From: a virus
Direction: 5' to 3' (one strand)
DNA length: 64,000 bases
Virus record (IMG/VR): IMGVR_UViG_3300035696_000014
Location: 63,192 to 127,191 of that record
The translations under genes and the position numbers were made by a program. The notes beneath the pieces were generated by a model. It saw only the letters and a program-made list of their open reading frames with translations, was not told the DNA's origin and searched no databases. Shown one piece after another: positions 2,130-63,406 of this stretch (positions are counted from its first letter, which is position 1; every line of letters begins with the position of its first letter).

Positions 2130-5100
2130 GACTTGCCTGCCGATGCCGGGATGGCGGGCGGTCCAGCCGGAGTGTAGCTGGTCAGCGGCGCGGACAGCTT
2201 GCCGTTCGGGTCTCGGACCGTCGCAAAGTCGATGCGATCCGCGATGATCGATTGCTTCCTCAGGATCATCACCTTCTCGACCTCCCCAACATCCATTGTA
2301 ACCTCGACGTTCAGGGTGATCTGCACTGCCTTGCTCGGGTTGACGGTGTAGGAGGTCTTGCCGCCGAGGCCCACAGCCTGGGCAACCTTCTCCAACCGTG
2401 CCTTGACGCTGACGATGTTGTCGCTGGACGCCAGGGCATCGTTCAGGGCGTTGGCCTGCTCGATCATTGCGCTAATCGCCGTCAGGGCCCCGACGACACC
2501 GCCCTTGCCACCCTCGCCGCCCTTGATTGCATCAGCCAGGGCCGTCATGTTGTTGCCAAAGGACGCCATGCTGGCGGGGTTGATGGGACCCAGCTGCTTC
2601 TGGACGTCGCTAACGACGCCGAAGCCCGCGACCAGCGTCTTCGTCATGTCCCCCAACGAAGCGGTGTTGATCACCGGTACGTCGCCGCCTCCCTTGAGGT
2701 TGTCACCGATGGCACGGGTCGCGTCGACCGATGCCTTCAGCACTTCGGCTCCCGCCTTCAGGCCCTCCAGCTGGCTGGCGTCGAGGCCCTTGGTCTGGTC
2801 AAGGACGCCCTTCAGGACGCCCGTCGTCAGCATGGGGAGCAACGTCGAGAGCTTGTCGCCCAGCAGGCCCATCGTCTTGGCCATGGCGTCGGTGTCCAGC
2901 TTCTCAACCTTGCCGCCGAGCAGGTTGAAGCTGCCGACGTTGATGAGGCCGGTGTTGACCGTCGAGGTGAAGGCTTTCATGGTGTCGCCCGACGGGATGA
3001 TGTTCTTCATCACGCTGGAGATGGCCGAGATGAGCTGACCCGCGACAGTGGCCTGCTTGGCCTCCTCTTCGGAGAACGGGATCGCCTTCAGCTGGTTGAT
3101 GATGTCGATGATGCCGCCCTTGCCGCCCTTGTCACCAAGGATCATCGTCATGATGCCGTCACGCATCTTCATCGCGTAGTAGTTGACGTCGGTCGCCAGG
3201 TCAGTGAAGGGCTTGCCACCGCTGAGCTGCACCAGGAAGCTGGAGCCCGCTTCGAAGAACTCAGGGGGCGGCGTCATCGCCGTCATCGCCTGGGACACCG
3301 CGGTCATGATGGAGCTGAAGACCTGCGCCTTCTCGGCGATGCCCTGGCCCAGTTGCAGCTTCTTGACGCTGTCCAGCACCGTCTCGACGAGGCCGATGAT
3401 GCCCTTGCCCCCGCCCTTGTTGCCGATCATGTCGTTGATCAGGCCCCGAGCCGCGGTGACCTTGTCGCTGAAGGACTCTGCCTTGCCGCTCAGCAGCTCG
3501 GTGAACGACGGCGTCATCAGGCCGATGACCTTCACGATGGTGTCAGCAAAGGCCTGGATCGACTGCATGATCTTGAGGAAGGCGTCGATCTTCCGCTGGA
3601 AGTCCGGCGTCACCTGCATCTCGTTGAGCTCTTTGACGATGCCCATCGCCACGGTGGCCATGCCACCGACAGCAGCGACCAGTACTCCGAAGCCCGCTGC
3701 AGCGAGGCCCAAGACGATGGCCTGGGGACCTGTCACCAGGGCGCCGATGACAGCCGCAGCGGCGATCAGCGGGACCATCGCTAGGAACGTCAGGGACATC
3801 TTCAGCATCATGTCGCCCGCCGCCGACAGCTCAGCCGGCGTTGCGGCCTTCTTCATCACGTAGGACAGGCCTGCGCCGACGAGGCCCACGATGCCGACCG
3901 CGGTCGACAGCACCAGGCCTCCCAGCAGCATGTCCTTGACGCTGCCCGCCTTGCTGACGATGCGGAGGGCCGCTGCCATCGGGATCGCCGCGACGACCAT
4001 CGCGCCCAGCACCATCAGGGGAGCGACCACGTCCTTGGGGCCCATGTCGCCCATGATCTTCTTCATGGCCACGATGGCCAGCGCCATCTCAACGCCACCG
4101 ATGGCCAACGCAGTCGCGATGGCGACTAGCTTGGCACCCAGGGCCACGGCGTCCTTGATGCCCCAGCCCTTGCCGTTCTTGATGGCAGCGTCAGACTCCT
4201 TGGTGACAGCGCTAACCTGCTGCATGCCCTTGGCACCGCCGGTCGCCGCCTGCGCTGCCTCTTCGACCTTCGCGGCCTTGCCGACCAGGCCACCCAGCAG
4301 CTTGCCCGCGCCGGACAGCAGGCCGGGCACCACGATCTTCAGGAGGGTTGAGGTCAGGGCACCCAAGGCGGCACGGCCGAAGGCTGGACCGAACAGCAAC
4401 GCCGCCAGGCCACCCAAGACGGGCTTCGCTGCGCCGGCGATGGCGTCCTTGTGCTTCTTCAGCATCTCGACGAACTTCTCGCCCAGCGTCTTGACCAGGT
4501 CCCACAGGGCGGGCGCCATCACCTGCCACGCTTCCTTCAGCGCCGCAACGATGGGCGTCAGGATCTCCTTCATGAAGCCGAGGCCGCCCGCTGCGGCACC
4601 GCCGACGGCGCCCACGCCGGGGATGGGCTCCTTGCCCTGGATCATGTTGGTGATGGAGCGGAAGCCCTCGGCCAGCGACTTGGCGACGAACTTGATGCCC
4701 TCCGCGGCGAACTTGGCGGCGAAGCGGAAGAACTTCTTGAAGCCGTCGAGCAGCTGCTTGGCACCCGCGCCCTCAGCGTTGAAGAAGTTCTTGAAGGTGT
4801 CCTTCAGGCCCGCCACCAGCGCCGGGATCGATCCCTTGACCGGATGCTTCGGGTCGTCGCCCTTGCCGAAGAACTTCTCGACGACCTTCCTGACGCCGTC
4901 GAACAGGCTGGTGATCTTCTTGGGGTCGAACAGCTTGTTGAGGGCGACGCCGATGTCCTTCAGGCCCGGCACGATCTCGACCAGGGCACGGCCCAGCTGG
5001 ACGCCGATCATGAAGACCTGGCGCAGGGCGATGCGGATCTTGTACATGATGCCGACGAACTCCTTCGACGACATGATGCCCTGTCCGATGCCCTTGACGA

Positions 5101-7181: not shown

Positions 7182-8049
7182 AGTTGACCCCGATCGGCAT
7201 CGAGACCTCCTCCTCGTGGCCACACTGAGGACACGACACCTCTTGGCGCATGATGATGCCGGGCTCGTTGTCCCGGATGTAGTTGCGCAACGCCAGGGAG
7301 TCACGGGCGGGCATCAGGCGAACGAAGCCCGCGATCTTGCCGCGGTCCTCGATGCCGTCGACGGACTGGATGCTGTAGAGCAGGTTCGTCGTCACTGTGG
7401 ACTCCGACTGCGTCAGCGCCAGCTTCTTCTGCTTCTCCTGTGTGGCGAGGATCGTCTCCTCGTCGTGGCCCGTCAGGAACTTGAACCTGACAACCTTCTG
7501 GCAATAGGGCAGCTTGAACTCGAAGAGGTTCAACCCCGGGGACACGGGTTCAATCCCCAGGCGCCGGATCGGCAGCTGGCCCAGGTTGAAGGTGCGGTTG
7601 GCCTTGGAGGCGCAGTCGGTGTTGCTGCACTCCAGCTCGGCGTCGTACTCGGGCCCGTAGCCAGTGATGCGGATGGCAACCATCAGAGCGTTGCGGTCAC
7701 CCATCAGCATGTCGCCCGGGTCGATGGCCTTGTTGACGAGGCACGACTTGATCAGTTCGGTGATGACGGTGCCCTTCTTCAGGTACGCTCGGCTCGTCAG
7801 GATGTCCTCCTCACGGGCTGTCATCGCTCGGATCTCAACGACCTCTTTGCCGTGCAGCGGTGACGCTGTCGGGTAGACGCGGCCACCGGACGGGAGCGGC
7901 ACCGTCTCCACCGGGATCTCGATCCCGAAGTCGGCCTTGAACTTGTCGGCCTGTGACAGTGCTTGGATGCCGGCCTGGACGGCCTGCGCGGGGGCCGGCT
8001 GCTCGCCGGCCTTGAAGACTTGGTTACGCTGTTCGCGTTCCTCAGACAT
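7156..8049 (-). CDS. Tail assembly chaperone / baseplate hub assembly protein (T4 gp26-like), 297 aa
   Basis: VPLPSGGRVYP and IRAMTAREEDIL motifs, two Cys pairs (CSNTDC, CPQC), C-terminal NFLWP; lies between tube and tape measure. Confidence 0.75.
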   Translation of the reverse strand: MSEEREQRNQVFKAGEQPAPAQAVQAGIQALSQADKFKADFGIEIPVETVPLPSGGRVYPTASPLHGKEVVEIRAMTAREEDILTSRAYLKKGTVITELIKSCLVNKAIDPGDMLMGDRNALMVAIRITGYGPEYDAELECSNTDCASKANRTFNLGQLPIRRLGIEPVSPGLNLFEFKLPYCQKVVRFKFLTGHDEETILATQEKQKKLALTQSESTVTTNLLYSIQSVDGIEDRGKIAGFVRLMPARDSLALRNYIRDNEPGIIMRQEVSCPQCGHEEEVSMPIGVNFLWPNAGR

Positions 8050-52995: not shown

Positions 52996-53298
52996 CTAGT
53001 CGACGTCAAAAGTGATCGCCATCGGTGGCCTCTGCGCCAGAGCCTGGCGGACTGCTCCGGGATCGGGTCGCCAGCCCTCTTTCCACATCGCGAGCCTGGG
53101 CTGGGCCCAGATGAGCGCACAGCGGTCACAACAGCCCACCGTGCGCCAAGATGCCTCATCGTCCTTCGTGCGCATCAGGCACGTGCAGACGGGACACGCG
53201 AGCGGGACGGGCGGTTCGGCGTCAGTCGGGACGATGACCGAGAAGCCCTCGGGTTGTTCTTCGATCAGGCGGTCGCGGAGGTACGGTCTCCAGGCCAT
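52996..53298 (-). CDS. Small Cys-rich (zinc-finger-like) protein, 100 aa
   Basis: CPVC...CCDRC. Confidence 0.65.
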   Translation of the reverse strand: MAWRPYLRDRLIEEQPEGFSVIVPTDAEPPVPLACPVCTCLMRTKDDEASWRTVGCCDRCALIWAQPRLAMWKEGWRPDPGAVRQALAQRPPMAITFDVD

Positions 53299-55889
53299 GA
53301 TTCGTTGTACACCACGTGAGCGTCCTTCTCGACCTTGTTGACCTCGATGATGTGGTCAGCAACGTCCTTGACGCCCTCGACGTGAGTGATGACGACGATG
53401 GTCTTGAAGTAGCGCTTCAGCGATGTCAACAGCCGGTTGCACCCCTCGACCGAGGCCGGGTCCATTGGACCGAACGCCTCGTCGATGATGAACATGTCGG
53501 TCTTCGGCAAGGATGAGCAGTTGATCAACGCAACGCGGATGGCGATCGACGCCACCGTCTTCTCCATGCCCGACCCGAGCTCGATGGGCCTGCGGCTGTC
53601 GCCGTAGTTGATGTAGACCTCCATCGAGTCGCTGTCGTTGTCGACCTCCAGCTCGATATTGAAGTCGACGATGCCGGTCAGGATCTTGCTGATCTCCGCG
53701 TTGATGACGGGCAGCTGGCTGGTGATGATGAGGTTCGGGATGCCCTTTCGAGAGAAAGCCTGAGCGATCAGCTCGTGTGCCTTCATCAAAGCCAGCAACT
53801 CCTCGCGCTGCGCGCGATCCTTTTCCAGCTTGTCACGATCAGACTGGACACGACCCTGTTTCGTCGCCAGATTCAGACGCTCGGTGTCAGCGACCCGGAA
53901 CTGTTGCATCAGCTTGTCCTTACGGTGACGCAGGGCAACGACTTCAACGTTCTCCTCGTTCTTCAGCGCCTCTTCGAGCTCCACCAGCTTCTGGTGCACT
54001 TCCTTGACACGAGGTGCCAGGTCGCTGTTGAGCTTCAACATCTTCTTGTCGTGCTCACGCTGCTCTTCGGCCAGCTTGGTCAGCAGCTCGCCACGCATGT
54101 TCTTCAGCTGCTGGAGCTTCGCCACCCGGTTGGGCAGGTCTTCACGCTGGAGCTGGAACAACGCTTCCTTCGCCTTGTCGAGCTTCTCTAGGGCACGGTC
54201 GACCTTCTCCTTCTGCGGTTCGACCTTGTCCTTGACCTTGTGGGCGTCCTTGATGAAGCGGCAGGTCGGGAAGCTGTCACCACACGGCACGTCATCCAGG
54301 ATCTTCAGGGACCGTTGCTGTTGCTTCAGCAACGCCGCTTCCTTCTCGTGCACGACGCGAAGCTGGTCAACGGCCGACTCCAGGGTCTTGTAGGCCTCCA
54401 GGCGCTTCTTCAGCTCGTCGACGTCGTTCTCCCGGAGCAGAGCATCGATGCTGCCCACCTTCCGGGTCTTCTGCGTGATCGATGACACCAAGCCGCTGAT
54501 GTCGGATTCCAGCTGCTTGCCCTGCTCACGGAGCGATGTCAGCAGCGATCGCTGCTTCTCGACCTCCGTCGGGGTCACAGCGATGACATCCTTGAACGTC
54601 ATCTCCTCCCGAGAGATGTCATTGAGCTGTTGCTGGATGTCGTGCTTCTCGTTGTCGTTGTCGCTGATGGCCTTGGCCAAACGCTCCAGCTCCAGGTCGA
54701 GCTGCCTCCGGGCCTCAGGCCAGTCACGGTCAGGCAGGCTGCGTAGGGTGGCCTTGTTGACGTTGACATCGTCCTTGGCCAGGTCGTACATCTTGTCGAA
54801 GATGTCCAGGTCCAAGAACCGCGACACCGTCTGGCGGCGTTTGGTCGAACCCTGGTTGATGTACTGCTTGATGTCGTCCTGGGCGGCGACGCTGGTCAGC
54901 AGGGCATCCTCACCGGTACCGATCAGCTTCCTGATGATGCGGTCAGTGTCCTTTCGCTCTTCACCACCCATGTCCTCCATCTCACCGCCGTCGATGACCT
55001 TGAAGACGTTGAGGTGGGTGTTGGCGTGTTGCTGGCCTCGACGGTCTTCATGCTTGACAGTCTGGCGCTCGATGACGTAGTCTGTACCGCCCGAGTTGAT
55101 GATGGCCCGAGCGTAAGCGTAGTCGTGCCGTACGTTGACGACATGGAGGTTCTTGATGCTGCCTCGGTCGCTGGTGTTGTGCAGCACGTACATGATGGTG
55201 CCGACGACGCTAGACTTGCCGATGCGGTTGGGCCCGAAGATGCCGACGATGCCGTTCAGGGCGTCAAAGTTGATGACGTTGCCCTCACCATAGGAGAAGC
55301 AGTTGTCCCACTTCAGGTGACGCAGCCTCCACTTGGTGTTGCGGACCACATCATCGCTGCCCAACACCCGGCCTAGGTAGTGGTTCACCTGCCCACGGAC
55401 TGCTTCCCACTCGGCGTCGGTGACCCGAGCGTTGGAGTGGTAGTCCCTCAGCAATCGAACCAACACGTCTGGGTTGCGAAGGTCGTCCTTGACCAGCGTC
55501 GCGGTGCCTGCGCTGATCAGCTCCTTGTCGATCTGGTGATCGTTCTTGAAGGTGACTTCGCTGGCCTTCTGGTTCTCCTGCAGCTGGTGCATCAGCGCAG
55601 AGACTTCCTTCTGCGTCAGGACCGCATCCTTGTAACGGATGCGGAACCTGGTGCCAGCGGGGTGTGGCGACGCCAGCTTGATAGTGTCCTCGACGTTGCC
55701 CGCCCAGTCCAGAGTGACGAATGGACGCGGGTTGGGCAGCTCACAGAACTTGACGTCGAAGTGGTTCTTGTCCTCGATGTCCCACAGCAGGTAGCCATGG
55801 TTCAACGACTCGCCGTAGTTCTGTTGGACGGGGCTGCCGGGGTAGGCGACCCACGGACGGTTGACACGGATCTTGATGCGCTTGCTCAA
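53265..55889 (-). CDS. SbcC/Rad50-like (gp46-like) ATPase fused to the C-terminal part of an SbcD/Mre11 nuclease, 874 aa
   Basis: N-terminal YPGSPVQQNYGE (SbcD late motif); NCFSYG; Walker A GPNRIGKS; coiled coil; GSGME signature; FIIDE; ITH. Confidence 0.9.
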   Translation of the reverse strand: MSKRIKIRVNRPWVAYPGSPVQQNYGESLNHGYLLWDIEDKNHFDVKFCELPNPRPFVTLDWAGNVEDTIKLASPHPAGTRFRIRYKDAVLTQKEVSALMHQLQENQKASEVTFKNDHQIDKELISAGTATLVKDDLRNPDVLVRLLRDYHSNARVTDAEWEAVRGQVNHYLGRVLGSDDVVRNTKWRLRHLKWDNCFSYGEGNVINFDALNGIVGIFGPNRIGKSSVVGTIMYVLHNTSDRGSIKNLHVVNVRHDYAYARAIINSGGTDYVIERQTVKHEDRRGQQHANTHLNVFKVIDGGEMEDMGGEERKDTDRIIRKLIGTGEDALLTSVAAQDDIKQYINQGSTKRRQTVSRFLDLDIFDKMYDLAKDDVNVNKATLRSLPDRDWPEARRQLDLELERLAKAISDNDNEKHDIQQQLNDISREEMTFKDVIAVTPTEVEKQRSLLTSLREQGKQLESDISGLVSSITQKTRKVGSIDALLRENDVDELKKRLEAYKTLESAVDQLRVVHEKEAALLKQQQRSLKILDDVPCGDSFPTCRFIKDAHKVKDKVEPQKEKVDRALEKLDKAKEALFQLQREDLPNRVAKLQQLKNMRGELLTKLAEEQREHDKKMLKLNSDLAPRVKEVHQKLVELEEALKNEENVEVVALRHRKDKLMQQFRVADTERLNLATKQGRVQSDRDKLEKDRAQREELLALMKAHELIAQAFSRKGIPNLIITSQLPVINAEISKILTGIVDFNIELEVDNDSDSMEVYINYGDSRRPIELGSGMEKTVASIAIRVALINCSSLPKTDMFIIDEAFGPMDPASVEGCNRLLTSLKRYFKTIVVITHVEGVKDVADHIIEVNKVEKDAHVVYNESWPGDRTSATA

Positions 55890-56533
55890 GCGATCACCTC
55901 TGCTTCGGGGTACTTCGCCAGGTCAGCTTCATCGATCTCGATCTCAACGTCACGTCCAGCCAGGAACTGCATCTTATGGATGTCCCCCAGCAGAACGAAG
56001 TCCCAACCCCTGAAGAACTCCACGGTGATGCCCTCTTCAACCAACCAGTCCGTCTCGGTCCGAGCTCCCCACACCGGACCGTGGTAACAAGCGATGTTGA
56101 CCTTGCCCGGGATGGGCTTGACGTTGTCCCAGTTCTTCTCGTCGAACAGGCTGAAAATGCCCCAGGTGTACCCCGGCGCGAACTCGTAGGTGCCGCTCTC
56201 CTTGTAGACGTGGATGCGCGGGTTCTTCAGCGCCCGGATGATGGGTGTCACCGCGTCCATCCTACCCAGGTTGACGAGGTTGCCGTCGTGGTTGCCCAAC
56301 GTCAGATGCACTTCCGCGGCATCGGCCATCAATTCAAGCCACCAGACCATCAGGTCGATGTACTCGGGTGACAGGCCACTGGTCTTGGTGTGGAAGATGT
56401 CGCCACCGACGAAGATGTGGGTGACCCCTTGCTCCTTGCACTGGCGTGCGAAAGCAACGAACACCTCGCGGTACTCGTCGTGCCTCGACAATCCCCGCCA
56501 GTGAACGTCAGCAATGTGAGCAATCTTCAGCAT
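55886..56533 (-). CDS. SbcD/Mre11-like (gp47-like) metallophosphoesterase, N-terminal part, 215 aa
   Basis: ADVH, GGDIFH, GNHD, YHG and LGDIH motifs; ends before the YPGS motif. Confidence 0.9.
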   Translation of the reverse strand: MLKIAHIADVHWRGLSRHDEYREVFVAFARQCKEQGVTHIFVGGDIFHTKTSGLSPEYIDLMVWWLELMADAAEVHLTLGNHDGNLVNLGRMDAVTPIIRALKNPRIHVYKESGTYEFAPGYTWGIFSLFDEKNWDNVKPIPGKVNIACYHGPVWGARTETDWLVEEGITVEFFRGWDFVLLGDIHKMQFLAGRDVEIEIDEADLAKYPEAEVIA

Positions 56534-57604: not shown

Positions 57605-58201
57605 TCAGTCTTCCTTCTTGGACTTCTTCGGCTTCTTGACGGGAACGACGACGCCCTCGACGGCAGCCGCCCTGGCGATGACGTAGGCGTCTGTCGCATC
57701 ACGGGACCAGTCGGCGACGGCGCCGTTCTTCTTCGTGGGCCAGGACACGCCCTTCAGGTCGTTCTCGCTCATGTGCTTGAAGACCTGTTCTTTCTGTGAC
57801 ATGCCGGCGACAGATGTTCTCTGAAGCTTGACACCGCAGGTCTTCCGTGCGTGGTTGGCGCTGATGTACTCGGGGTCAACACCGAACTGCTTCCGGGCCA
57901 GGTTGCTGACGATGCCGTTGAACCGCAGGAGCATCGAGATCGTCTGCGCGCTCGACATCCCGGGCCGGAACCCCATCAGCGGCTCTTCCAGCACGATGCG
58001 GGCGATGTGGTGGATCTTCTCCAGATCCCAGAGGTACTTCTCGACCCGGTCGACCTTGTCCCAGAACGTCTTACATCCCTTGAACTCGATTCGATCAAGG
58101 ACCTTGATGTTGCTCTGGTAGCCGTCGGGCTTCGCGCTACCGTCAAGCACACAGACCCCCGTGCACGAGGTGCTGACATCGAGGCCCAAGATGATCGCCA
58201 T
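57605..58201 (-). CDS. RuvC-like Holliday junction resolvase
   Basis: ILGLDVSTSCTG, IVLEE, K-x-x-V, DATDAYVIA. Confidence 0.85.
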   Translation of the reverse strand: MAIILGLDVSTSCTGVCVLDGSAKPDGYQSNIKVLDRIEFKGCKTFWDKVDRVEKYLWDLEKIHHIARIVLEEPLMGFRPGMSSAQTISMLLRFNGIVSNLARKQFGVDPEYISANHARKTCGVKLQRTSVAGMSQKEQVFKHMSENDLKGVSWPTKKNGAVADWSRDATDAYVIARAAAVEGVVVPVKKPKKSKKED

Positions 58202-58238
58202 GGGCAGATCGTGGCCCACCGCGCACCCTCGTAAAACC

Positions 58239-58637
58239 CTACTTCAACAGGCCAAGGAGCTTCAGCTCCTTCTCGGTCAGCACCACCAGGGTCACTTGGT
58301 GGGCCTGACACCACAACGCTGCCGCCTTCAGCTTCTTCTGAACGCGGTCCTGGTCCAACTTCCGCTTCGGCTTGATCTCGACCAGGAGTTGCTCGCCGTC
58401 ACGCTGCTGGACCAGGAAGTCGGGCCAGTACCAGCGCACCTTGCCCGTCTTCTTGTTCGACACATACGGGATCCTGACGTCTTCGTAGCGATAACCCACC
58501 ACGTCAGGGTTGGCGTCCAGGTGGTGCATGTACTCGAGCTCCCAGCCCGACCTGTAGTGGCACTCCTGGCCCGTCTTTGGAGAGACATGGACACCAGTGT
58601 GGTACCTGCGCTTCTTGCGTCGTTTCTTGGTTGCCAT
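58239..58637 (-). CDS. Head completion nuclease (T4 gp4-like, TnsA N-terminal PD-(D/E)xK)
   Basis: YRSGWE, YE-x-x-x-IPY, YWPDF, VEIKP. Confidence 0.85.
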   Translation of the reverse strand: MATKKRRKKRRYHTGVHVSPKTGQECHYRSGWELEYMHHLDANPDVVGYRYEDVRIPYVSNKKTGKVRWYWPDFLVQQRDGEQLLVEIKPKRKLDQDRVQKKLKAAALWCQAHQVTLVVLTEKELKLLGLLK

Positions 58638-62174: not shown

Positions 62175-63406
62175 CAGAAGTCGAGGCGGACGCGGAAGGT
62201 GAGGTCGCGCTCTGGGCTCTTCTGGACGGGACGGGACAGCTTAGCGACAGCCAGCAAGTTGTCGTTGGCGTCGTACATGCCGACGCTGGTGATGTAGGTG
62301 AAGGTCTGCTCAGTGTCCTCTTGGCCCACGTCAATGACGACGATGCGGTTCGTCGTGTCAGTGAAGGTTGGGTTCGACGAGTAGTTGAACTCATCAGCCT
62401 CAGCGCGGCAGAAGATCAGTGTGGAGTTGATGTTGGTGACGTTCTGGAACGTCAGAGCCGTCTGGGATCCGGAACCAAGCCGGCACGAGGCGATGTGGTC
62501 GATGATGTTGTCGATGGAGGCGCTGACGACGAAGTCAGGGATGAAGGCCGACAAGAACTGCGTCTGGGTGCCCGAGGCACCGAGGACAGTGTCACCGAGC
62601 GGCGCCATGGCATCGATGGTGCCCGACATGAACTGGCTGGCGCTGGTGATCTTGGACAGGTCCAGCACCAGGATGCCACGATCATAGAACATCAGGCCAA
62701 CGTTGCGGCTGGTGTTTGCCGAGTCGACAACGTTGCCGACCTGTCCACCGAAGGTCGACAGCTTGTTGGTTGCCGCACCGATGTCGGTGTAGATGGCGCT
62801 GCCGCTGGTCGACGTGATGAAGAGGTTGGGGGTGCAGTTGCCGTTGGTCTCGACCGGGCTGACACCGTCAGTGGCCGTCTCGATCGACGCGGTCTGGAAG
62901 AACCGCATCGCGAAGGTCTCACGCTTGATGCTGTCACGAGCAAATAGGCGCTTGAAGGCAATGAATAGGGCGACGTCGATCTGGTCACTCGGGTTGCTGC
63001 TATTCAGCGGAGAGGTGAAGACGCTCGTGTTGGTCCCCAGCAGCGCTGTGGCGAACTGCCGGTAGATGTCCATCTTCTCGCGCATCATCAGCGATGAGGA
63101 CGGGAATAGCTCTTTGCCGGCGCTATCGACGCCGGTCTGGCTGGTGAGCTCTGTGGGACCACCGGGTTGCAGGCCCATCGTCATGTCGAAGATGGCGTTG
63201 GCTGTCTGCAACGTGAAGTCCTGGTCGTACACCGTCTGGAACAGCGAGCTGGTGACACCCGGGCCGATGCCGCCGGTGACGAACACCTGGTACTTGCGCC
63301 GTGAAACCGAGCCGGAGACGTCCTCTTGCAGGACGTCGATGAGTTGATTGAGGAAACTGCGAGCTGTCTTGATGTCGCTCGGGAGGATCTCTTTGAAAGT
63401 TGCCAT
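62174..63406 (-). CDS. Virion structural protein (baseplate/collar type), 410 aa
   Basis: VGLMFYDRG...FNYSSNPTF...YITSVGMYD...LAVAKLSRP...RVRLDF; paralogous C-terminus to 58637-61486. Confidence 0.8.
   Translation of the reverse strand: MATFKEILPSDIKTARSFLNQLIDVLQEDVSGSVSRRKYQVFVTGGIGPGVTSSLFQTVYDQDFTLQTANAIFDMTMGLQPGGPTELTSQTGVDSAGKELFPSSSLMMREKMDIYRQFATALLGTNTSVFTSPLNSSNPSDQIDVALFIAFKRLFARDSIKRETFAMRFFQTASIETATDGVSPVETNGNCTPNLFITSTSGSAIYTDIGAATNKLSTFGGQVGNVVDSANTSRNVGLMFYDRGILVLDLSKITSASQFMSGTIDAMAPLGDTVLGASGTQTQFLSAFIPDFVVSASIDNIIDHIASCRLGSGSQTALTFQNVTNINSTLIFCRAEADEFNYSSNPTFTDTTNRIVVIDVGQEDTEQTFTYITSVGMYDANDNLLAVAKLSRPVQKSPERDLTFRVRLDF

Follow-up and report, generated by a model that had tools for sequence, protein, structure and literature searches.

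A gene for an Mre11-Rad50 (SbcD-SbcC) enzyme is broken in two inside its nuclease domain in a stretch of 64,000 nucleotides (nt) of viral DNA, positions 63,192 to 127,191 of the IMG/VR record IMGVR_UViG_3300035696_000014. This whole stretch is called the window below; its source is a phage. The upstream half of the gene encodes an N chain of 215 amino acids (aa; 55886..56533, minus strand) and the downstream half a C chain of 874 aa (53265..55889, minus strand). A preliminary description of this DNA had delimited the two open reading frames (ORFs) in the same way, and both were confirmed from the sequence and the ORF list. We read the arrangement as a fractured gene left by a mobile endonuclease cassette, the endonuclease gene of which would now be gone, and on the sequence comparisons given here we put the probability of this reading at about 0.75. 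The break and the tails that border it are kept across many phages, and the insert to which the tails belong turns up at scattered places of the family tree, in some cases together with an endonuclease gene and in others alone. Judged from its sequence, the two-chain Mre11-Rad50 of the window is real, conserved and functional-looking.

A split enzyme in a family of one-chain proteins

Relatives of the window locus were collected from the viral contigs of IMG/VR with the N chain as query. From 178 relatives 80 loci were kept and fetched. The same break and matching tails, which the preliminary description had suggested looking for in homologs, are present in 46 of these loci (65–91% identity); the other 34 encode one chain (62–69% identity). 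A large protein collection yielded 378 matches of 118–377 aa at E ≤ 1e-3, and the 120 listed among them are 201–233 aa long. A library-wide search gave 2516 matches at E ≤ 1e-3, the best 150 cluster representatives of which were classified. One chain without the insert was found in 124 representatives (114 of them with at least 900 aa) and one chain with the insert in four. Eight were flagged as having an extra terminal tail, one of which, P0202, is really a cut one-chain form, and the rest are fragments. The usual relative is a single chain of about 1050 aa without the insert of about 30 aa, which bears out the earlier view that the split occurred within a family of usually fused SbcD-SbcC proteins. 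The nearest named phage, Microcystis phage Mel-JY01 (40% identity), likewise has a single ORF of 1066 aa, with a spacing of 12 residues from GDIH to the YPGS strand. A tblastn search returned four records only. The protein of LR756501 is one chain of 1202 aa, and LR756508 (34% identity; locus L002) is broken at the same point, with tails that are recognisably similar and with an ORF of 305 aa separating the halves. The junction region gave no blastn match in the phage collection, which may not include records of the window's own genome.

The N chain comprises the Mre11/SbcD phosphoesterase part with every metal-ligand motif, followed by an acidic tail. It matched Pfam Metallophos with 7.3e-11 and 43.3 bits (cut-off 21.5). 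The C chain starts at a TTG codon and consists of a basic head, the YPGS strand, the capping region and the Rad50/SbcC ATPase. It matched AAA_23 with 44.2 bits (cut-off 27) at residues 192–461; the matches of its C-terminal part to SMC_N (25.2 bits, cut-off 40) and SbcC_Walker_B (18.8 bits, cut-off 27) both remain below cut-off. In PHROGs the two chains hit SbcD-like (N chain, 4.3e-20) and SbcC-like (C chain, 1.4e-53) families. The motifs DxH, GD, GNH, H and G(H/D)xH are present in this order and lie entirely in the N chain. Among 44 aligned split forms (alignment A1, with 36 of the 120 listed proteins and 7 from the library-wide search) the residues D9 H11, G44 D45, G80 N81 H82, H151 and G183 D184 I185 H186 are invariant. 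The last motif, GDIH (residues 183–186; 55976..55987, minus strand), aligns with LGHLH or LGHIH of solved SbcD chains, and the N-chain profile matches 15 solved SbcD/Mre11 sequences with a best value of 1.3e-09.

The fold was predicted with AlphaFold2 for P0272, a one-chain relative that carries the insert and not one of the window chains, from an alignment of 80 proteins (A3). The model has a mean predicted local distance difference test (pLDDT) score of 87.9. It matches the SbcD/Mre11 chains 7yzo_A (2.4e-11), 4lty_A (6.9e-11, template modelling score 0.64 by target) and 3thn over 369–444 alignment columns and also Rad50/SbcC chains such as 7zr1_D (4.3e-20). Its helices of residues 577–951 lie between the two halves of the ATPase head. 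By motif, by profile and by the predicted fold of this relative, the window enzyme is an Mre11/SbcD nuclease combined with a Rad50/SbcC ATPase.

Within the C chain, residues 1–190 (55320..55889, minus strand) contain the capping region and, according to the predicted contacts, two core strands of the nuclease fold, W13–S19 and Y33–W36. The YPGS motif is part of the first of these strands (55833–55844, minus strand). Residues 191–874 (53265..55319, minus strand) form the Rad50/SbcC ATPase head, coiled coil and hook according to Pfam and PHROGs. At the apex of the coiled coil, residues 535–548 (about 54246–54287, minus strand), P535, C536 and C543 are invariant in a C-G-D-x-F-P-x-C motif among 31 aligned C chains, i.e., the window and 30 split loci with complete C parts (alignment A2). 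These apex cysteines have a C-x6-C spacing; the spacing of the Rad50 zinc hook is C-x-x-C.

Tails, insert and junction

One-chain forms have a plain beta hairpin at the position of the break, composed of GDIH-x-x-Q-x-L-x-x-R-D, a turn of 1–8 residues and K-P-W-x-x-Y-P-G. Split forms add about 20 residues past R-D. These comprise an acidic strand of alternating pattern, then the piece D/E-L-x-K-Y-P-G and a short strand A-E-V-I-E; the stop codon follows. They restart with M-(S)-K-K-I-K-I-K-V-K-K ahead of P-W. The distance from GDxH to the YPGS-type motif is 10–24 residues in one-chain relatives compared with 44 across both window chains. In the window the core of the N chain ends with ...LLGDIHKMQFLAGRD and is followed by the tail VEIEIDEADLAKYPEAEVIA*, and the C chain opens with MSKRIKIRVNR followed by PWVAYPGSPVQQNYGE. 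The N tail (V196–A215; 55889..55948, minus strand) carries a net charge of −7 and the C head (M1–R11; 55857..55889, minus strand) one of +5. The acidic and basic ends of the preliminary description are thereby found as described, and they have their counterparts in relatives: the charges of the two tails are opposite in all 36 distinct split pairs, with means of −5.4 for the N tail and +4.9 for the C head. Both the 20-aa N tail and the 11-aa C head are absent from the one-chain relatives without the insert.

By sequence, the tails are two parts of one insert of about 30 aa that also exists unbroken, in the five proteins P0126, P0272, P0152, P0124 and P0242. Four of these unbroken inserts are weakly charged and nearly neutral; that of P0242 is strongly charged (−8/+7). 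In this sample of only five unbroken forms, the charges hint at a strengthening after fission. A second flavour of the insert with a G-W-K/E motif in its acidic part was also observed, in split form in L002, P0229 and P0238 and unbroken in P0242 (1089 aa).

The P0272 model, in which the pLDDT over residues 181–240 is 86–93, shows a strand (188–200), a helix (201–204) and two further strands (211–216 and 219–231) in this region. The break of the split forms maps to the two-residue turn 217–218 between the last two strands. In this model the insert lengthens both arms of the hairpin and adds a short third strand. The N tail would correspond to the extension of the first arm together with the short helix and the short strand, and the C head to the extension of the second arm. 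We infer that in the two-chain enzyme the C head forms the central strand, with one strand of the acidic N tail on either side.

The complex of both chains with full tails, as suggested in the preliminary description, was predicted from the N chain with 44 rows and C-chain residues 1–190 with 31 rows. The interaction score from predicted aligned errors (ipSAE) was 0.91 compared with 0.00 for the best of three controls; the mark for this score was passed by 58 of 80 solved complexes and by 2 of 110 mismatched pairs. The runs agreed in at least 87% of contacts and the pLDDT of the partners was at least 72. The surest predicted contacts are core strand pairs, N 4–7 with C 33–36 and N 179–182 with C 13–16. 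The interface further holds N-tail residues 196–203, 205, 208 and 210–215 as well as C-chain residues 2–21, of which 2–12 were assigned to the head. The prediction supports binding of the N chain to the C chain without proving it, and halves of a known fold may pass such a test by their likeness to solved Mre11 structures. The charge-complementary beta-strand clasp that had been proposed for the tails fits both the P0272 model and this interface; as the main joint between the chains it does not hold, since most of the predicted interface is nuclease core and not tails.

The junction on the minus strand reads ...GCA GAG GTG ATC GCT TGA, and the TTG start of the C chain takes its first T from the end of GCT and its other two letters from the stop codon. 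The four letters TTGA at 55886..55889 thus hold both the start (TTG, 55889–55887) and the stop (TGA, 55888–55886). The sequence GAGGTGATC (55900–55892) in the final codons of the N tail resembles a Shine-Dalgarno (SD) site and forms a duplex of −7.1 kcal/mol with the anti-SD sequence. The earlier claim of a coupled TTGA start behind an anti-SD match was thus correct at the level of the sequence, and it gains from the relatives, in which such a site is enriched: SD-like sites of −6 kcal/mol or better occur at 23 of 36 distinct junctions, compared with 10.9% of 3886 background windows inside N genes. An NTGA overlap with TTG, GTG or ATG is found at 20 of the 36 junctions. Over all relatives the junctions range from the 4-nt overlap to gaps of 1–949 nt and occur in all three relative frames. 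Because gap, frame and start codon vary in this manner, independent initiation of the C chain is the only model that fits all junctions, and we infer that the C chain of the window has a coupled initiation of its own. At its glutamate-rich end the N tail would then have two roles, since its last codons hold the SD-like site.

Endonuclease genes and mobility of the insert

Several relatives carry an additional ORF exactly at the break. In L041 and L046 this is a 300-aa ORF with weak matches to Vsr and DUF559 below the Pfam cut-offs. The 305-aa ORF of L002 matches a TnsA-like N-terminal domain with 27.2 bits (cut-off 26.5), and the 306-aa ORF of L023 reaches 24.6 bits and remains below this cut-off; the two proteins are 38.5% identical over 187 aligned columns. 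A 104-aa ORF containing Cys residues and belonging to no recognised family is located at the break of L030 (6651–6965). Two of these loci, L023 and L030, fall inside an all-split group of 27 tree rows that also includes the window (SH-like approximate likelihood ratio test (SH-aLRT) 95, quick tree). Remnants were found as well. L033 and L034 (6691–6825) retain an ORF of 44 aa in which the beginning and the end of the Vsr-like ORF of L041 and L046 are joined. In L037 (6646–6721) a gap of 77 nt has the same 3' end as the Vsr-like ORF and overlaps the downstream start. The gap is 25 nt in L042 and L043 and 13 nt in L047, and 39 of the 46 split loci have no intervening ORF or remnant. From their matches, the ORFs at the break of L041, L046, L002 and L023 are predicted to be free-standing endonuclease genes of Vsr-like or TnsA-like type.

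The distribution of split and fused forms was analyzed with two trees. The first was calculated from the N core plus 260 residues past YPGS, with the insert excluded, for 82 rows (L012 and L069 were dropped since their C part was too short). The second comprised the N core alone for 198 of 218 rows, without fragments and unclear forms, and was of low resolution. On the first tree the split/fused label needs at least nine changes, seven of which are forced by starred branches. When the 46 split rows were held as one clade the log-likelihood was 457 lower and the approximately unbiased test gave a p-value of 2.2e-07. On these sequence data a single origin of the split forms is rejected. The second tree places split forms in many distant parts of the family, with at least five changes forced by starred branches and 16 on the best tree. 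Split alleles with the Vsr-like tail type nest among one-chain alleles.

Comparison of the DNA sequences pointed in the same direction. L041, L033 and L037 are 90–97% identical in the 60 nt to the left and the 30–90 nt to the right of the insert and 30–83% identical elsewhere. Conversely, L037 and the one-chain locus L078 are 73–100% identical elsewhere and 60–63% identical in the windows abutting the insert. These tracts show that in some relatives, the Vsr-like lineages, the insert, the tails and about 60–90 nt of flank transfer together between alleles. The tails are part of what moves, because the tracts next to the insert match a cassette copied into a new allele with short flanks. The sequence comparisons argue firmly for horizontal exchange of the insert-bearing segment, a claim that does not include its direction.

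The window's own 127-kb contig was searched for the ORFs found at the break. It gave no Vsr-like copy and only a small TnsA-like gene at 58239–58637 (minus strand). This 132-aa ORF has a PD-(D/E)xK-like stretch and shares 35% identity (E 1e-12) with the nuclease domain at the C-terminal end of the TnsA-like ORF in L023. Most fetched loci, whether split or fused, have similar copies 2–3 kb upstream of the nuclease gene, and L023 has two more copies of the nuclease domain upstream in the same locus (2365–2664 and 3895–4230). As judged by these similarities, the endonucleases at the break may share or may have borrowed a resident phage nuclease domain.

Origin of the break and known systems

According to the reading as a cassette remnant, the lineage of the window would once have taken up an endonuclease cassette at the tip of the hairpin that leads from GDIH to the YPGS strand. 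The endonuclease gene would later have been lost, leaving the stop codon, the SD site in the last codons of the acidic tail and the overlapping TTG start. Since the C chain supplies two core strands, the chains would reassemble mainly by completing one nuclease fold, and the basic head strand between two strands of the acidic tail probably speeds or stabilises this assembly, as the models suggest. The preliminary description had assumed that an ancestral fusion was re-split at a new point and that an adaptor was then invented. The split of a one-chain family is retained from this proposal. Simple re-splitting followed by the invention of an adaptor is not, because endonuclease genes sit at the junction in relatives and the tails and flanks move together.

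Several observations weigh against the cassette origin. The halves of the window gene overlap by 4 nt with neither an endonuclease gene nor a remnant between them, and past occupancy by an endonuclease is deduced from relatives. In these, endonuclease activity and homing are predictions, and the matches of L041, L046 and L023 lie below the cut-offs. The existence of five proteins with an unbroken insert means that the insert may predate any break and that endonuclease genes may simply have moved into a gap already present. Both trees come from quick searches, the gene clearly recombines, and gain cannot be told from loss on them. Conservation of the last codons of the N tail may partly serve the ribosome-binding site and not the protein. 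The dN/dS (nonsynonymous to synonymous substitution rate) of 0.20 for the N tail is a crude value with dS of about 1.3–1.4, near saturation, except in the C head; the C-core value of 0.33 with a dN of 0.61 is distrusted, since equal-length slices were compared unaligned. Finally, in the only case in which such tails were tested, the split NrdA protein of Aeromonas phage Aeh1, they are needed for dimerisation of the heterodimers and not for binding of the halves to each other (Crona et al. 2011, PMC3045599). Because these tails are dispensable for half-half binding, they call for caution in reading the tails of the window as a clasp.

The order of events could also have been the reverse. The insert would then be an old, optional three-strand subdomain of about 30 aa, a stop and a start codon would have arisen in its turn without any endonuclease, and endonuclease genes would have landed in the gap later, as they do between other phage genes. 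This would account for the unbroken inserts at five separate places of the N-core tree, for two unrelated nuclease types in the same gap and for the 39 split loci without an ORF or remnant between the halves; moreover, P0272 groups with the split clade of the window (support 85, not starred). Unbroken inserts are rare, however, with 4 of 150 representatives, and re-fusion could explain them just as well: where the frames overlap by NTGA, one or two altered bases are enough to join them. Furthermore, in the Vsr-like lineages the tails, the endonuclease gene and the flanks were transferred jointly into backgrounds whose nearest relatives lack the insert. We regard this order of events as unlikely.

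Far less probable still is the restoration of a single protein by a programmed frameshift, translational bypass, an intron or an intein. The frame of the C chain is shifted by −1 from that of the N chain, the two frames overlap, and bypassing is known from gene 60 of phage T4 (PMC2677866). On the other hand, there is no slippery heptamer at ATCGCTTGA, and relatives differ in the spacing and frame of the junction, so no single recoding signal is conserved. The 4-nt overlap is too small for an intron, and Rfam gave no match in the window between 52000 and 59000 at E ≤ 0.1 nor at the gathering score in five gap-bearing loci. Intein signs had been reported absent before; indeed, Pfam gave no Hint or intein match at E ≤ 0.1, and the tails of 20 and 11 aa, which start at V196 and end at R11 before P12, are too short and have no nucleophile or HN residues. 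All four variants were rejected on these grounds. A sequencing or assembly artefact, or a dying gene with a recent inactivating mutation, can practically be dismissed. The preliminary description had called for a check of 55886–55890 for an indel. Near-identical contigs were recovered from peat metagenomes, and contigs of three peat-metagenome runs, one of which may be the window's own source, match the window with 0 differences. An independent contig (X3 record 9, 55637–56104) bridges the junction unchanged, at a low read depth of 2–5. Together with the same break in 46 of 80 related loci and with two halves that are both open and conserved, this contig excludes an error or a fresh pseudogene.

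We consider a more far-reaching version of the cassette origin only tentatively and as somewhat less probable than its opposite. In this version the insert would be a portable split-protein clasp in which a basic strand is gripped by acidic strands. Gene conversion would spread it along with endonucleases of at least two unrelated families, whose insertion it would make harmless, and it would outlive the endonuclease as a joint between subunits, its charges being strengthened after the break. If this were true, hundreds of phage lineages would represent a long natural optimisation of a small heterodimerisation tag, and the states without insert, with unbroken insert, split with endonuclease and split without would form a readable record of permanent gene fission.

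The split of an SbcD-like gene is already known since 2009. Dassa et al. (2009, PMC2677866) describe one Lake Gatun locus of the GOS data in which such a gene is split by a Vsr-like ORF without an intein. The upstream ORF ends with 25 and the downstream ORF starts with 9 extra residues, which are located between two successive conserved motifs and have no counterpart in other SbcD-like proteins; the Vsr-like ORF overlaps the downstream gene, as it does in L041 and L046. The Lake Gatun gene and the family of the window are alike in the two ORFs, the lack of an intein and the extra residues at the break; the tails are likened by length and position. The Lake Gatun locus has an endonuclease gene, whereas the window has none and its halves overlap by TTGA. 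For another locus, gp41-7, the model of these authors includes a later loss of the endonuclease gene (step III). The one locus of that report is now joined by 46 split loci among 80, with TnsA-like besides Vsr-like ORFs, remnants, unbroken inserts and transfer tracts. The window is thus a well-documented further example of this split.

A parallel for the tails is NrdA of phage Aeh1, which is split by mobE into NrdA-a and NrdA-b. Its oppositely charged tails are essential; they were proposed to have arrived with the mobile element and perhaps to be a general way of coping with fragmentation (Crona et al. 2011, PMC3045599). As in the family of the window, a free-standing endonuclease makes two genes out of one, the charged tails are absent from unbroken homologues, and neither RNA nor protein splicing is involved. 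The systems differ in the enzyme, in the HNH type of the endonuclease and in the polarity of the charges, since in NrdA the basic tail is upstream and the acidic one downstream, opposite to the window. Fractured genes that contain split inteins (PMC2677866) share the layout, a proposed loss of the endonuclease and charge complementarity between interacting strands. Their halves are ligated by protein splicing; the window has no Hint motifs, and its tails are far too short for an intein. The SbcCD or Mre11-Rad50 enzymes of bacteria, archaea and phage T4 (gp47/gp46; structures 6s6v, 7yzo, 4lty and 3qg5) have the same folds and also consist of two chains. In these two-gene systems, however, the Mre11 gene includes the capping and Rad50-binding parts before it ends, whereas the gene boundary of the window cuts through the nuclease core and leaves the capping region joined to Rad50.

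What the window adds is an endonuclease-free, probably translationally coupled state with overlapping genes in a G+C-rich peat phage. A literature search found no published description of an endonuclease-free SbcD split, although it cannot prove that none exists. The comparative analysis contributes the unbroken inserts, a second endonuclease family, a decay series and the transfer tracts. An enzyme core that is naturally cut in two and yet under selection in many phage lineages shows where the Mre11 fold tolerates fission. The states without insert, with unbroken insert, split with intact endonuclease, split with decayed endonuclease and overlapping would make up a fairly complete life cycle of a cassette, with the window as its end state. 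It might be worth trying the short acidic and basic strands as a small heterodimerisation pair, an idea which is not new in view of the split described in 2009 and the NrdA tails described in 2011.

Some minor observations concern individual loci and the surroundings of the gene. In L019 (6645–7208) the C-part ORF ends at 7208, and in L018 and L021, which have identical tails, it continues to 9266; an assembly error or a broken copy may be the reason. The window is the second half of a single contig of 127,191 nt with 61.7% G+C. A 204-aa ORF (57605–58219, minus strand) between the primase-like gene and the small nuclease gene gave no Pfam match at E ≤ 0.01; its N-terminal stretch presumably resembles RuvC. 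Next to the split locus lie a primase-like gene of DnaG type and a gene for a large terminase of T4 type.

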